DNA of 64,000 bases, taken from an uncultured Clostridiaceae bacterium (GTDB lineage Bacteria > Bacillota > Clostridia > TANB77 > CAG-508). Of this stretch, positions 51,816 through 58,025 are shown one piece after another. The stretch lies in the NCBI GenBank assembly GCA_948444845.1, contig CAOJVB010000006.1:1252-65251 (forward strand), read 5' to 3'. Each line of letters starts with the position of its first letter. Positions within the stretch are counted from its first letter, which is position 1. Both the position numbers and the translations under genes were made by a program. The notes under the pieces are model-generated. The model was not told where the DNA came from. It searched no databases and worked only from the letters and a program-made list of their open reading frames with translations.

Positions 51816-51941
51816 TTTTTATACCTCTCTTTTTAATATTTTATATCATACTTTTTTTAAAATTTCTTTAGAATGGGTGGTCAGTATAATGTATTTTTAT
51901 AAAAAGAGATTTTTAGGTACGTCCCAAAAATCTCTTTATTG

Positions 51942-54378
51942 TTATTCAAATAAGTTTAGTTGTTCTATATTACTTCTTAAATATACTTGCTCTAATGAAG
52001 TATCCAAGGCTACGTCGCCGTTTATTCGGGCGTCTTCTATGTTTAGGAAGCTATTGTTTGTGTATTTACTGCTTCTTAGTGCTAGTTGGTATATTAGGGT
52101 GAATTTGTCTGTTATTGAGCTTTGGCTTAGGTCTGATAGGCATATCATTTGGGTGTTGAATCTTTTTGATATTTCTATCATTGGTTCTAATAGGTGTTTT
52201 GATGATGTTTTTCCGAATGGATTGTCTAGTACGAATACTTTTGAGCTTTCTGCTTTTTCATCTTCTCCCATATTTTCTAGTTCTTTTTTTCTTGTGTACT
52301 GGGTTAGGGCTGATAGTAGTGCGAAACATGCTATGAATTTTTGTCCTCCTGAGTTTTCTATTATTACTTCTTCCCATTGCCTTAAACCACTATTTTTATT
52401 TTCTATGTCAAATTTGTATAGTTTTACTTTTATTGTTTCTATGTCTAGTGTTAGGTTTAATAGTACTCTATCTGATAAGCAGGCTATCACTTTATTTTCT
52501 ATTGTTTTTCGTATATCATCAGTGTGCTTACATTCTTCTCTTAAGTCTCGTATACATTCTTCTATGTGGCTTTCTATTCTTTTTTCTACATATTCCTTTA
52601 GCTCTTGTGGAATTTCTATTTTTAGAATTTGTACATATCTTTCCCCTATTTTTATTCTTGAAGATTCTGATATTTGTTTCATTTCTTGGTATAGCATAAT
52701 TCCTTGTTTTACTGCATGTTCTAATATGTTTTTCTTATCTTTTTCAATATTTTGAAGTGATAGGTTTAATATTCCTATATATTCTGTTAATTTCTTTATA
52801 CATAGTTCCATTCTTTCATAAATATAATAATATGTTTCGAAGTTTCCTTCTTGTGTACTTTGTAAATTTACATTTTCTAAAAAAGAACTTATAATTCTAT
52901 GTTTATTTTTGTAATTGTTACTTATTTCTAAATGTTTTCTATAACATTTATCTTTGCTTTTATTATTTTCACTTTTTAGTTCTTTATATTTACTTATTAA
53001 TTCTTGCAAATTTACTTTTTCTAGTTCTATTTTTTGGAATTCTTGGGTTATATTTTTTACATCTACATTTCTTTCGATATCATTTATTTGTTTTTGCATT
53101 TTATTATTTTTCATTATATATTCTTTTTGTTTTTTCTTGCCTTCTTCTTTTGCTATATTAATATCATTTTTCCTTTGGCTATAATTTCCTTTTATTTTGC
53201 TTCCACTAATAGGCTCTTCTTTTCCTAATTTTTTAAGGTTATTATATGTTGTTTGAAATAGTGTTTCTGCTTTTGCATATTTTTCTCTGGCTTTATCTGA
53301 TATATCTCTTTTTTCTTCTAGTTTATTTTCCTCTTCTTCTTTTCTTTCTTTGCATAAATCTTCTATTTCTTCTGAATAGGTAATAGTTATATATTCTTCT
53401 TCATTTATATCACTATAATCTTTGCGCTTTTCTTTTGCTTTTTCTTCTATAATAGTATTTTGGTTTGATATTTCGTCATTTATTTGTTCAATACTTTGCC
53501 TATATTCTTTACTTAAACTATCGTACCTTGCTTCTAATTCTTGTATAGAAATATTTAGTAGTTCTTCACTTTCTCTTTTTGGTATTTTTATTTGCTTTTC
53601 TTTTAATTTTTTTAATTCATTAGATATGTTAATTTTATTTACTCTATTTTCTTCATTCTTCTTTTCCGCTTCTTCCATTTGTTTTTCTATATTTTCATTT
53701 TCTTTTCTATTTGAGTTAATTTCATTTTCGTATGCTTCTTTTTCTTTTACATTCTCTAAATAGCAAATATTATTTTCTAAATACTTTAAGAAATCTTTTT
53801 CTTCTTGCTCTTTTTCTTTTAGAAATACCTCATTTTTTTGTATGTCCTTACTTCTATTTTCTATTTCCTTTTCCCAGTTTTTTGTACTTTTATTTTTATA
53901 TTCTAGAGATCTTTCTTCTAATAGTTTAAAATTGCAAGCAATTGTTTTCAAAAAATTATTTTTATCATTTGTAACTACCTTATACATTTTATTCGCTCTT
54001 TTATATATTTCTTTTTTATTTGAATTTATATATCTATATTCTGTTGATATTAAATTTTTGTATTTTACATCTTTTTCATCATATTTTAAAAGATGCATTA
54101 CATTTATTTCTTTTGGAACTGGTATCATTGCTAATTGCTAATGGGATATTTTTTCTATCATATATGAATAAAAAACTAGGATTATTTTTATATTTTTTAT
54201 AATGTTCTTTATATGAGTACAATGGCACAAAGTATTCGTAATTTTCTATTTTTAGTACTACTCCTAAATATGGTCTACTATGCTCTTTTTCATCTTTATT
54301 ATAGCTTATATGTTTTTCATACTTACTTAAATATTTAATATAATTTTCATCAATAGTATAAAATAATAGTTCTTCCAT
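51942..54378 (-). pseudogene. AbiQ/ToxN-like domain fused to a ~640 aa coiled-coil / ABC-signature tail; reading frame broken by a 7-bp tandem duplication
   Basis: ORFs 54079-54378 and 51942-54128 overlap at TTGCTAATTGCTAA (54128-54141). Removing one TTGCTAA gives one 810-codon frame (...NIPLAMIPVPKE...). The tail has SGGQKF (ABC signature-like) and VFVLDNPFGKTSS (Walker B-like). I see no Walker A. Confidence 0.65.
53889..54378 (-). other. AbiQ/ToxN-like (type III toxin endoribonuclease family) domain
   Basis: MEELLFYTIDENYIKYLSKYEKHISYNKDEKEHSRPYLGVVLKIENYEYFVPLYS ... MIPVP ... CNFKLLEE resembles my recollection of the AbiQ/ToxN pattern (Y.V...Y..YL...D..V......RPY.G......YFAPLSS, NMIPV, CNFKLLE). 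Confidence 0.6.
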
Positions 54379-54402
54379 TTACTTCCTCTTTCTATTTTTT
54401 TA

Positions 54403-54436
54403 TGCAAAAAGGGAGTACACTTTTTAATGTACCCCC
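54403..54436 (-). terminator. Stem-loop plus U-run immediately upstream of the AbiQ-like start
   Basis: In the minus sense: GGGGGTACA-ttaaaaag-TGTACTCCC followed by TTTTTGC. Known type III TA loci have a terminator between the antitoxin RNA repeats and the toxin gene. Confidence 0.6.
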
Positions 54437-54607
54437 AATAATTTAAAACAGCTCATTTATAAGGCTTGAGCTTTACCTAATTTCATAACGTTCTTTTTTA
54501 GGTTAGAACTTCCTATTAGTAATCACAATAGATTACTCTTCTAGTATATTTATTATAATACTATTTTATTCATTATGTCAATATAATTTTAATATTTTTT
54601 TGAATTC

Positions 54608-54702
54608 TTATTCTTCTACCTTTACAAACATATCTTTTCCAACTCCACATAATGGTCATACCTAGTCTTTTTGTAGGTCTTCGAATTTTACCTTTTCTAC
54701 TT
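54608..54702 (-). pseudogene. Degenerate duplicate of the 3' part of the rubredoxin gene
   Basis: About 95 bp that by eye differs at only about nine positions from 56307-56401, with the frame corrupted. Confidence 0.8.
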
Positions 54703-54712
54703 ATTAGCATAA

Positions 54713-56014
54713 TTATCTTATTAGAAACGCTGCATATAAAGGTATTGATTTTATTCCATTATGGAATCCAAAATTTTTGCTAGAAATTCTTATAGAGTAT
54801 TTTGGATTGTTTTGTTTTATATAACTATTTAAACTTTTTGAAGTTGTATTGTCAGATGCTTTTACTTCAATTGGAATTAGTCCATCTTGATTATATAAAA
54901 TAAAATCTATTTCAGCATCACTGTTTGACTTCCAATAATACAAACTAACTCCATTTCTTACTAATGTTTGTGCTACATAATTTTCTGCAATATTTCCTTT
55001 ATATAAAAAACTATTATCTAAAAGAATATCATTATATTGAATTTCTAATAATGATGTAAGTAAGCCTACATCACTTATATATAATTTGAAATATTCCTCA
55101 TCTGCATATGCTTTTGGTGGAATTTGAATTGATTTTAGTAAGTTGCATTTATATATCATAGTACTTGAAATTAGCCATTGCATTGATGTTTCATAGTCTC
55201 TACTTCTTGCATTTGAATTTATTTTTGAATATTGGAATTTATTACTTGTGTTTCCAAGTTGACTTGGTATTGATTTGTATATTGCTTCTATCTTTGACTT
55301 TTCCGTATTATTAAGAATATATTGATTCATATCATTTAAATATGACTCAATAATATTTTTGATTATTCCTTTATCAAAATCAAAAATATTTTGATTTACA
55401 TCTATTATATTTTGCACTGCTTGTGGCATGCCTCCAATACATAAATATAACCTATACAAGTTTAATAGTTTTTCATGTAATGCATTAGTTATAGGTGTCA
55501 TTTGCTCATAACATTTATATATTTCATCTATTAGTCCTTGACTAGATGTTGCCATTAAAAATTCTTCAAAATCCATTGGGTACATATATTCCATTTTAAC
55601 TTTTCCTACTGGAAAAGAAGAATGAAATCGATTTATTTTCACTCCTAACAAGCTCCCCGCACATATTATTTTATATGGCTTTTCTGATTCACAAAAATAC
55701 TTTAAATTACTAATTAATTTTTCACTAAGCTGAATTTCATCAAAAAATATTATTGTTTTTTCTAAATCTATGTTATTATTTAATATCCATTGCATTTTTG
55801 TAAATTTTTCCTCTGTTGAAATTGGTTGTTCAAATAAATCAACAATTTGAGGATTATCTAATAAATTAATATAAATATAATTTTCGAATTCGTTTTTGCA
55901 AAACTCATTTATAACATATGTTTTACCTATTTGTCTTGCTCCTATAATCATTAAAGGTGTATCAATAAAGTTTTCTTTCCAATACAATAAATTATTATAA
56001 ATTTTTCTTTTCAT
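54713..56014 (-). CDS. AAA+ ATPase with DUF4143-type C-terminal domain
   Basis: IIGARQIGKTY Walker A and IIFFDEIQ Walker B. The overall pattern matches the common 'ATPase, DUF4143' family. Confidence 0.8.
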   Translation of the reverse strand: MKRKIYNNLLYWKENFIDTPLMIIGARQIGKTYVINEFCKNEFENYIYINLLDNPQIVDLFEQPISTEEKFTKMQWILNNNIDLEKTIIFFDEIQLSEKLISNLKYFCESEKPYKIICAGSLLGVKINRFHSSFPVGKVKMEYMYPMDFEEFLMATSSQGLIDEIYKCYEQMTPITNALHEKLLNLYRLYLCIGGMPQAVQNIIDVNQNIFDFDKGIIKNIIESYLNDMNQYILNNTEKSKIEAIYKSIPSQLGNTSNKFQYSKINSNARSRDYETSMQWLISSTMIYKCNLLKSIQIPPKAYADEEYFKLYISDVGLLTSLLEIQYNDILLDNSFLYKGNIAENYVAQTLVRNGVSLYYWKSNSDAEIDFILYNQDGLIPIEVKASDNTTSKSLNSYIKQNNPKYSIRISSKNFGFHNGIKSIPLYAAFLIR

Positions 56015-56166: not shown

Positions 56167-56306
56167 TATAATAATTGTTCCATTATTTGCTTTTATTTCA
56201 ACGGTAATTAAAAAATATTCATTTCCTACAAATACATTTTAATTAAAAAACCCGCACAAGGAAATGTGAGGGTTTGCTTTAAGCTTTATTATAATATTTT
56301 TTTAAT

Positions 56307-56444
56307 TTATTCTTCTACCTTTACAAACATATCTTTTCCAACCCCACATAATGGGCATACCCAATCTTCTGGTAGGTCTTCGAATTTTACTTTTTCTACT
56401 TCTTCATCATATACATATCCGCATACTGTACATTCATATTTCAT
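56307..56444 (-). CDS. Rubredoxin
   Basis: Own translation gives [45 protein letters not shown]. It is below the ORF-track cutoff. An alternative ATG lies at 56450. Confidence 0.85.
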
Positions 56445-57674: not shown

Positions 57675-58025
57675 TTAATTTTGTTTTTCTATTATTTTCT
57701 TCAAGTCTTCCTTTAATTTAATAATATCTTCTGTTATAATATCCCAAATAAAGTTTAATTTTATTCCTTCATAATCATGTACAATCTTATTTCGCAAATT
57801 TTTTATAATAATCCATTCTATATTTGGATATTCCTGCATTGTTTCTTTACTAATATTTTTTACTAATTCTCCTATTTGGCTTATCGCAAAAACTGTTGCA
57901 TCTATTTTTTCTTCATTTTTCGAAAAAGTTTCAAAGTCACAATCTTTAGTATATCTTAATGCTTTATCAATATAATCTATCATCTTTTTTAATGATATAT
58001 ATTCTTTATTTTTCATACACAACAA
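57675..58025 (-). CDS. HepT-like (DUF86) RNase toxin
   Basis: RNKIVHDY matches the Rx4HxY HEPN motif. It overlaps the MNT gene. Confidence 0.85.
   Translation of the reverse strand: MLCMKNKEYISLKKMIDYIDKALRYTKDCDFETFSKNEEKIDATVFAISQIGELVKNISKETMQEYPNIEWIIIKNLRNKIVHDYEGIKLNFIWDIITEDIIKLKEDLKKIIEKQN

Follow-up and report, generated by a model that had tools for sequence, protein, structure and literature searches.

Type III toxin–antitoxin loci consist of a promoter, a repeated RNA unit, a terminator and a toxin gene, and in the toxIN family the unit measures 31–62 nt and is present in 1.9–5.6 copies (Blower et al., 2012; PMC3401426). The ToxN proteins of Bacillus thuringiensis (4ATO), Pectobacterium atrosepticum (2XD0) and E. 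coli (7D8O), and AbiQ of Lactococcus (4GLK), are all matched by an intact homologue of the toxin considered here (E = 1.2e-24 for 4ATO). Type III Wadjet (JetA3, JetB3, JetC3 and JetD3) is an SMC-like plasmid restriction system, whose operon order in the present clade of Clostridia is jetD-A-B-C.

We analysed a 64-kb stretch of DNA (the window) from a low-GC (28%) mouse-gut Clostridiaceae bacterium, whose ancestor probably carried a toxIN locus followed by a Wadjet operon, jetD-jetA-jetB-jetC, in an accessory island flanked by a rubredoxin gene and fadD. The window holds a 99-aa ORF and a 728-aa ORF (51942–54128, minus strand), and, as the original prediction had noted, no stop codon separates the toxin-like start of the latter from its long tail. 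We are confident that this fusion frame is the scar of a 5.9-kb deletion joining a broken toxN to the 3′ part of jetC, and that the locus is what erosion has left of two adjacent anti-phage systems. A rearrangement joining two unrelated defence genes was among the possibilities first raised, along with a new fused effector inactivated by slipped-strand duplication and a mistaken family assignment; profile searches disposed of the last, placing the two parts in the ToxN/AbiQ and SMC/ABC families. Feature coordinates are collected in Table 1.

Table 1. Features of the toxIN–jetC region (window coordinates).
Feature	Position	Strand	Description
toxI promoter	54552..54581	-	TTGACA-18 nt-TATAAT, 12/12 consensus
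toxI transcript leader	54490..54536	-	Two small hairpins: GTAATC..GATTAC (54519-54536) and GTTC..GAAC (54490-54509)
ToxI-like unit	54445..54484	-	40 nt, single; hairpin arms AGCTCA (54467-54472) and TGAGCT (54450-54455)
Truncated start of next unit	54439..54444	-	AAATTA, as after the last full unit in relatives (upstream-region alignment)
Intrinsic terminator	54403..54436	-	Between toxI and toxN; 11-bp stem (54411-54436), then U-run TTTTT
toxN 5′ fragment	54079..54378	-	99-aa ORF; ToxN homology to 54133, remainder out-of-frame read-through
11-bp deletion scar	54128..54141	-	Resembles TTAGCAA twice; deletion point between 54133 and 54132, with 1-nt ambiguity
toxN 3′ fragment	53892..54128	-	Shifted frame; residues 1-79 of the 728-aa ORF
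Lost toxN stop	53889..53891	-	AAA codon; TAA at the corresponding position in the closest relative, L028
Deletion junction	53874..53881	-	8-bp microhomology AAAACTGG, at both breakpoints in the undeleted L001
jetC 3′ remnant	51942..53873	-	About residues 819-1454 of a 1,454-aa type III Wadjet JetC; coiled coil and C-terminal head lobe
Probable operon terminator	51903..51937	-	AT-rich hairpin, then T's, 3′ of the jetC stop; read from sequence

The split toxN gene

The prediction that the 99-aa ORF and the start of the 728-aa ORF are two halves of one ToxN/AbiQ toxin was borne out. Judged against the curated threshold of 25 bits, both halves belong to the Pfam family ToxN_toxin (PF13958): the 99-aa ORF matched profile positions 3–73 (E = 4.6e-21, 76.1 bits), and residues 1–76 of the 728-aa ORF matched positions 84–158 of 159 (E = 7.3e-14, 52.7 bits). 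The PADLOC AbiQ model also recognized the 99-aa ORF (E = 1.4e-18). With an intact homologue as tblastn query, the 5′ fragment was 85% identical over residues 1–82 and the 3′ fragment 77% identical to ToxN residues 87–164. A good Shine–Dalgarno sequence, AGAGGAAG, lies upstream of the ATG of the 5′ fragment; inspection of the sequence upstream of the 728-aa ORF ATG revealed none.

The two frames had been proposed to be offset by a tandem duplication of TTGCTAA at 54128–54141. The repeated pattern is indeed there, but its supposed origin did not stand. DNA alignment of 15 intact homologues together with L028 and L031, the closest broken relatives that keep this stretch, gives GCAATT-ATTAAATTTTC-AGCAATG, and comparison with these two and with all 24 intact homologues shows that 11 bp have been deleted to give the frameshift; the same 11 nt are absent from both the window and the near-identical locus L001. 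We conclude that the tandem repeat did not arise by duplication and is evidently a by-product of this deletion, which would have shifted the frame and brought together two pre-existing AGCAA motifs to give a pseudo-duplication of 7 bp. Tandem repeats of this length are not rare in the AT-rich window, where seven sites were listed. Removing one TTGCTAA copy does produce a single frame, of 809 codons, as predicted; its product, however, lacks six conserved residues, IIKFSA, and skips Pfam profile positions 74–83.

A second lesion presumably removed the toxN stop codon, by a change from TAA, as in L028, to AAA. The sequence there is ...TATAAAAATTAAGTAAG in L028 and ...TATAAAAATAAAAGTACA in the window. 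The original prediction had named homologues with a stop codon and a separate gene beyond it as evidence against a true fusion, and L028, where toxN ends in TAA, is such a case. In place of an uninterrupted frame of ~165–175 aa with its own stop, the window thus has a gene that is split by the 11-bp deletion, has lost its stop and is fused at its 3′ end to jetC. Unlike the toxins of described ToxIN systems, it is a pseudogene of the ToxN family.

The toxI antitoxin unit

Upstream of toxN much of the type III arrangement survives. The region has a −35/−10 promoter, which the intact toxIN loci L004–L027 have in the corresponding upstream position, and a short palindromic terminator before the toxin gene, the stem-loop and U-run that had been predicted; this folds as expected and is the sole terminator-like site in 51850–54720. 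The two leader hairpins appear in both the MFE and the centroid fold, and the leader is conserved in relatives. What is missing is the tandem array of at least ~1.9 copies typical of the family (PMC3401426). The original prediction found no tandem antitoxin repeats in 54437–54607 and suggested a search for a ToxI-like RNA; the search revealed a single full unit, the sole copy in the window, followed by 6 nt of the next. Two tandem full 40-nt units are present in 25 of 29 related loci, which carry about 2.2 units between a perfect promoter and a terminator, so the apparent absence of an array is explained by the window having kept only one. The unit length and the copy number of the relatives fall within the published ranges, whereas the ~1.2 units of the window fall below them. 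In at least one locus, L016, an intact toxin accompanies a single-unit antitoxin.

The hairpin stem of the unit shows compensatory changes at three of its six pairs, with 97.5% of cells paired as against at most 52% in slid controls; a candidate pseudoknot helix, AGGU/GCCU, is almost invariant and so offers little covariation to read. The unit differs from those of described ToxIN systems in being preceded by a structured leader of ~55–60 nt and in having no Rfam model; no Rfam family was found in 54300–54800. We expect that toxI would still be transcribed from its intact promoter and stop at the terminator, and that read-through transcripts would yield only the 99-aa N-terminal ToxN fragment, presumably unable to form the fold.

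Has the antitoxin outlived its toxin by selection, as an orphan chromosomal ‘anti-ToxN’ that acts against related ToxN proteins brought in by mobile elements or produced from other genomic loci? toxN has been broken independently four times in the clade (in the window and L001, in L028, in L031 and in L037), and the 179-nt toxI unit still has its hairpin and terminator and a perfect promoter. Its between-species identity is 99.4, 94.3 and 96.5%, compared with 93.3, 92.1 and 90.8% for the neighbouring flavoprotein gene and 77–96% for the toxN remnants, and in a close relative there are metatranscriptome contigs confined to this unit. We nevertheless regard such a role as unlikely. The simpler alternative is conservation inherited from a time when an active toxN made loss of toxI impossible, the lesions in toxN being recent.

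The jetC remnant and the 5,893-bp deletion

The tail of the 728-aa ORF matched the PADLOC type III Wadjet JetC model (JetC3, PDLC00583; DUF3584) only over profile positions 823–1445 of 1471 (E = 1.8e-53). It therefore corresponds to the C-terminal ~45% of JetC, an SMC-like C-terminal half that lacks the P-loop, in agreement with the predicted SMC/ABC head half. It includes SGGQKF (52335–52352) and, at 52200–52241, KVFVLDNPFGKTSS with VFVLDNPFG. The tail had no Pfam or NCBIfam match and was recognized only by the PADLOC JetC3 models; a PDB sequence search with it returned nothing beyond a chance match. The AT-rich hairpin beyond the jetC stop was not flagged by the terminator scan, its stem having too few G–C pairs.

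The window does not encode a full-length SMC-like ATPase (~1,450 aa) with an N-terminal Walker A head lobe, nor does it encode the partners of one. In tblastn searches we found no match to the JetA, JetB or JetD of L001 anywhere in the 64 kb, nor any other Wadjet genes. The window thus differs from type III Wadjet systems in keeping only the last ~636 residues of JetC; the Walker A head lobe, JetA, JetB and JetD have been deleted.

L001 shows what was lost. This contig, 98–99% identical to the window, carries toxN (with the same 11-bp lesion), jetD, jetA, jetB, jetC and fadD in that order, followed by fabD, and its four Wadjet proteins match the JetD3, JetA3, JetB3 and JetC3 models with E-values of 1.7e-71 to 2.7e-146. 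Window positions 54476–53869 correspond to L001 1–608, and 53897–49012 to L001 6469–11358. Missing between them are 5,893 bp, consistent with the frame arithmetic, in which all three partner genes lie; the Walker A motif, NLANGGGKS, is in the deleted part of jetC (L001 4064–4918, JetC3 profile 1–290). The microhomology AAAACTGG occurs in L001 at 596 and 6489, so that an 8-bp direct repeat lies at both breakpoints; one copy is kept in the window, as in microhomology-mediated deletions. We propose that a third lesion, a deletion between these copies, removed the toxN–Wadjet spacer, jetD, jetA, jetB and the first ~818 codons of jetC (its 5′ 56%), and by chance (1 in 3) left the remainder of jetC in register with the shifted toxN frame. 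The remnant is 99.7% identical to residues 335–971 of the L001 JetC piece P0001, from which the deletion is evidently recent. P0001 itself, with 96% query coverage, was considered as a homologue of the fusion and rejected; it lacks any ToxN segment, being just a jetC piece of greater length. One point counts against the scar account: jetC of L001 already carries an in-frame TAA (4916–4918), and the order of inactivating events is only partly resolved. Complete operons with an uninterrupted 1,454-aa jetC are present in L040, from another species, and in L046.

The island has a GC content of 20–25%, compared with 30–34% in its flanks, and has been eroded independently in sister species: L031 lacks all of Wadjet and half of toxN, most of toxN is gone from L037 and L040, and the toxN frameshift of L028 is a different one. 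This is ordinary defence-island decay, and nothing in the window is unusual for microhomology-mediated decay except that the deletion restored a long open frame. In related Wadjet operons we also noted a conserved +1 frame break in jetD; it lies outside the window and is the most promising lead from this work. In an intact operon such as L040 the site reads GTT-C-GGA-AAA, and the break may reflect either programmed +1 frameshifting, which would give a JetD of ~340 aa, or a split gene, which would give a 54-aa peptide, a C-terminal protein started internally, or both.

Origin and coding potential of the fused frame

We asked how far the fused frame could be explained otherwise. Were the contig chimeric, with toxN wrongly joined to the middle of jetC across a short repeat, a junction lying in an 8-bp repeat in AT-rich, low-complexity DNA might be expected, and contigs of run X3 do break at 53848–53898. 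Such a repeat is, however, far below assembler k-mer size, and at least four contigs share the identical fused ORF, including an 86.6-kb ENA contig (ERZ14865206) and a Logan contig (SRR17684624). Both lesions are spanned without differences by contigs of runs X1 (depth 47) and X2 (study P1) and X8 (study P3). The fused allele is real and comes from at least two studies, and an assembly artefact can be given practically no credence. The junction and the 11-bp-deletion allele had no exact match in GTDB representative genomes, and a gapped search of JGI metagenomes matched none of the three possible alleles, so the source strain or allele is absent from those collections.

A ToxN RNase with an SMC-like tail, turned off reversibly by slipped-strand gain or loss of 7 bp, would account for a frame that is open for 728 codons and becomes a single 809-codon frame with one repeat copy fewer. 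We consider this phase-variable effector extremely improbable. What was lost is 11 bp, IIKFSA is missing after the 7-bp ‘repair’, the tail is less than half of a JetC and has no P-loop, and a near-identical strain retains the complete intervening genes. Two copies of a 7-mer are in any case a poor substrate for slippage, and every contig seen has the two-copy allele, in a comparison of assembled contigs whose resolution does not extend to minority alleles at the repeat. Nor did the same fusion emerge elsewhere: among the best 150 of 654 matches in 1.84 billion representative proteins, with lengths of 58–351 aa, there was no ToxN with a long tail. A weak ToxN-like tblastn match at 16981–17154 was spurious, as it falls within an ordinary RNase R gene with RNB, CSD2 and S1 domains.

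The JetC fragment, alone or as part of the chimera, might instead be expressed and either keep some function or act as a dominant negative, for instance by disturbing a different Wadjet or SMC complex; its uninterrupted 728-codon frame and 99.7% identity to the relative's jetC could be read in this way. That identity equally denotes a recent deletion, and coding DNA that is AT-rich and rich in Lys and Glu codons would be expected to stay open after such an event. ATP binding by SMC-type heads requires both the N- and C-terminal lobes. With an ATG lacking a ribosome-binding site, no other Wadjet genes in the window and a nonsense codon already in the parental jetC of a sister lineage, we think residual function very improbable. 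We favour the deletion scar: the 728-aa ORF is a chimeric pseudogene and not an effector, probably untranslated and inactive given that it lacks a ribosome-binding site, the ATP-binding P-loop half and the JetA, JetB and JetD partners, so that we would expect no RNase activity of ToxN and no plasmid restriction by Wadjet.

As found, the locus matters little. The comparison defines a toxIN subfamily common in gut Clostridia, with a 40-nt ToxI unit and a hairpin supported by covariation. It also shows that the ancestral protein is reconstructed wrongly when an apparent tandem duplication is ‘repaired’ with no reference to homologues. The locus is a clear example of defence-island decay, in which a deletion can create a long and plausible chimeric ORF that may be mis-annotated as a new fusion protein.

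Origin of the fused reading frame

Both ORFs and the TTGCTAA tandem described in the original prediction are present (see table), and dropping one copy of the heptamer does yield a single 809-codon frame. The ToxN/AbiQ assignment proved right, since the 99-aa ORF matches Pfam PF13958 (ToxN_toxin) over profile positions 3–73 (E = 4.6e-21), residues 1–76 of the 728-aa ORF match positions 84–158 of 159 (E = 7.3e-14), and the PADLOC AbiQ model concurs on both halves. The ∼650 remaining residues had no match in Pfam, NCBIfam or a PDB sequence search. They do match, with E = 1.8e-53, the JetC models of type III Wadjet in PADLOC (DUF3584), over profile positions 823–1445 of 1471 only; the tail therefore consists of the last ∼45% of an SMC-like JetC, a coiled coil and one head lobe.

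We collected 34 related toxN loci from GTDB genomes, all gut Clostridia MAGs, 29 of which are close relatives. ToxN is intact (165–192 aa) in 24 of these 29 and reads ...PLAIIKFSAMIPVP... across the break. In the DNA alignment, the aligned intact genes, L028 and L031 read GCAATT-ATTAAATTTTC-AGCAATG, and the middle 11 nt are absent from the window and from L001, a near-identical relative. What shifted the frame is therefore a deletion of 11 bp and not the slipped-strand 7-bp duplication that had been proposed; two pre-existing AGCAA motifs, 18 nt apart, are now spaced 7 nt in the window. Although the frame opens once 7 bp are taken out, we rejected the resulting product as the ancestral protein, as it lacks the conserved IIKFSA strand, in line with the gap of ten positions in the Pfam profile match. 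The same allele occupies the 11-bp lesion on every contig seen, giving no support to phase variation.

When the repaired (one-copy) protein was used as query against 5.8 billion proteins, five were returned, none of them a ToxN fusion. The best match, P0001 (971 aa), is near-identical to the tail from NWEKEIENRS on, and its upstream part is more JetC, not ToxN. It is encoded on L001, a Logan-assembly contig 98–99% identical to the window. In BLAST alignments window 54476–53869 corresponds to L001 1–608 and window 53897–49012 to L001 6469–11358, so that 5,893 bp of L001, jetD included, are missing from the window. L001 has the octamer AAAACTGG at each breakpoint (596 and 6489), and the window has a single copy (53881–53874); the fusion junction is a microhomology-mediated deletion. 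The number of deleted bases leaves 1 on division by 3, exactly what is needed to align the rest of jetC with a toxN frame that was shifted already; that the fusion frame is open is an accident with a chance of 1 in 3. The toxN stop has also been lost, since window codon 53889–53891 is AAA where toxN of L028, the closest other species, ends ...EYKN-TAA.

The original prediction had weighed a novel fusion effector against a rearrangement scar joining two defence genes. The scar is what we find: L001 retains the intervening jetD, jetA, jetB and 5′ part of jetC, and the polarity, a deletion rather than an insertion, is fixed by two other Wadjet operons. L040, from another species, has this jetD-A-B-C operon between a toxN relic and fadD, its 1,454-codon jetC uninterrupted, and the operon of L046 is intact as well. 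The effector reading fails because the tail is a jetC remnant joined by the deletion and has no fusion homologue among the matches searched; the best 150 of 654 relatives of the ToxN N-terminal half, among 1.84 billion representatives, are all 58–351 aa, with no long fusion.

The fused allele is real. At least four contigs encode the identical 728-aa ORF, among them one of 86.6 kb from ENA and a Logan contig of another run. Three runs of mouse-gut metagenomes, belonging to two studies, have contigs that cover both lesions with zero differences. Deleted and undeleted (L001–L003) alleles both circulate. In L001 (4916–4918), L002 and L003 one in-frame TAA follows codon 284 of the 1,454-codon jetC frame, so Wadjet was probably already inactive in this sister lineage; jetC is uninterrupted in L040, L044 and L046 and has frame changes in L042, L043 and L045.

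Features of the locus and of related Wadjet operons
Feature	Location	Strand	Basis or remark
toxN 5′ ORF, 99 aa	window 54079–54378	−	ORF reading
toxN 3′/jetC ORF, 728 aa	window 51942–54128	−	ORF reading
Tandem TTGCTAA-TTGCTAA	window 54128–54141		sequence
SGGQKF, jetC head lobe	window 52335–52352	−	sequence motif
VFVLDNPFG, jetC head lobe	window 52200–52241	−	sequence motif
toxI promoter	window 54581–54552	−	perfect 12/12 consensus match
Sole toxI unit	window 54484–54445	−	one unit only
toxI terminator	window 54436–54411	−	terminator scan
toxN	L001		split 99 + 111 aa, as in window
JetD3	L001, next after toxN		E 1.7e-71
JetA3	L001, after JetD3		E 2.7e-146
JetB3	L001, after JetA3		E 2.3e-63
JetC3	L001, after JetB3		N-terminal part with Walker A NLANGGGKS, then 971-aa remainder
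fadD, fabD	L001, after JetC3		same genes as in window
Split jetD	L001 709–1732		Wadjet operon; shift site 854–873
Split jetD	L040 6964–7999		Wadjet operon
Split jetD	L042 3712–4762		Wadjet operon
Split jetD	L041, L043, L044, L045		Wadjet operon

The toxI antitoxin RNA

Upstream of toxN the relatives carry a promoter (TTGACA/TATAAT) followed by a structured leader, then two 40-nt units in tandem with the start of a third, and finally a terminator (GGGGGTACA...TGTACTCCC); the more distant L032–L036 show the classic ToxI arrangement, with three repeats of 36–37 nt. Both the unit length and the copy number of the relatives lie within the ranges of the toxIN family (31–62 nt, 1.9–5.6 copies; Blower et al., 2012; PMC3401426), whereas the window, with ∼1.2 copies, falls below the latter. 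A stem-loop with a U-run upstream of the toxin gene and a lack of tandem repeats had both been noted, correctly: repeat comparison finds one 40-nt unit. The unit has a 6-bp hairpin with three pairs changing on both sides from one unit type to another (AGTTCA/TGAACT, TGCTTA/TAAGCA, AGCTCA/TGAGCT), in few independent events; pairing holds in 97.5% of cells, and in slid controls in no more than 52%. The helix AGGU/GCCU, a pseudoknot candidate, hardly varies. Rfam has no model for the unit RNA.

Since ToxN cuts ToxI into single repeats and binds them (PMC8860590), one unit flanked by cleavage contexts could still be functional. L028, L031 and L016 are also single-unit, and one unit may be enough for neutralization because L016, whose toxI lies upstream of 6001, encodes an intact 177-aa ToxN. 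Its unit is of the second-unit type and the window clade retains the first (compared with L004–L027), so one-unit arrays arose at least twice.

From promoter to terminator (54403–54581), toxI is 99.4, 94.3 and 96.5% identical to L028, L031 and L037, above the adjacent flavoprotein gene (93.3, 92.1 and 90.8%), and toxN is broken independently in all four lineages. In a close relative, short contigs from metatranscriptomes cover the toxI unit only. toxI may therefore be under selection without toxN, as an orphan antitoxin; its conservation is equally explained if, while toxN was formerly active, the antitoxin could not be lost before its toxin.

A variable island and a split jetD

Between the flavoprotein and rubredoxin genes on one side and fadD on the other, GC content at the locus is low, at 20–25% compared with 30–34% in the flanks. 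This hotspot is variable: L031 is without Wadjet and half of toxN, L037 and L040 keep Wadjet and only ∼30 codons of toxN, and L028 has another toxN frameshift and other downstream genes. Given these differing lesions, the clade has seen at least four independent inactivations of toxN. ToxN genes or relics (47–54% identity) adjoin the same Wadjet operon downstream in L043 (16933–17442) and upstream in L044 (3968–4114); toxIN and type III Wadjet thus co-localize repeatedly in these Clostridia.

A 119-nt direct repeat, 85% identical (54587–54705 and 56286–56404), duplicates the rubredoxin gene 3′ end and flanks 54713–56014, bracketing a ∼1.7-kb segment with an AAA_14/DUF4143 ATPase gene. The segment looks like an insertion, because in sister species L031 and L037 the rubredoxin gene directly adjoins the toxI promoter. 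Some 3 kb from toxIN, a HepT-like RNase toxin gene (PF01934) and an adjoining MntA-like nucleotidyltransferase gene (57675–58025 and upstream; also L038 1–454) form a second toxin–antitoxin pair, which fits a defence/TA island.

Throughout this Clostridia clade of type III Wadjet, whose operons run jetD-A-B-C, the jetD gene is split, with ∼54 codons in frame 0 and the remainder in +1; this holds for L001 and six further species. The split genes read GTT-C-GGA-AAA where contiguous relatives such as L046 have GTT-GGA-AAC; the extra C creates a rare 0-frame CGG codon (1.3 per 1000 vs. 37.9 for GGA in this genome), with TAA two codons on. The conceptual +1-joined product matches the JetD3 profile over positions 2–340 of 346 (E = 4e-89). 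About 25 protein clusters are split, some on dozens of contigs (27–64), and both halves stay open across 66–84% JetA identity; every jetD homologue with an identity of at most 57% is contiguous. This Wadjet nuclease gene looks like a candidate for programmed +1 frameshifting of the hungry-codon kind; alternatively, it may be a conserved split gene. We found no account of a split or +1-frame jetD in the papers searched.

In the window, toxI would still be transcribed. Only the 99-aa ToxN stub would be translatable, since a good Shine–Dalgarno precedes 54378 and none precedes 54128, and the JetC remnant would be inert, having no Walker A and no JetA, JetB or JetD. The fused frame, within a defence island in decay, is a chimeric pseudogene, and the locus a new but broken representative of known families.
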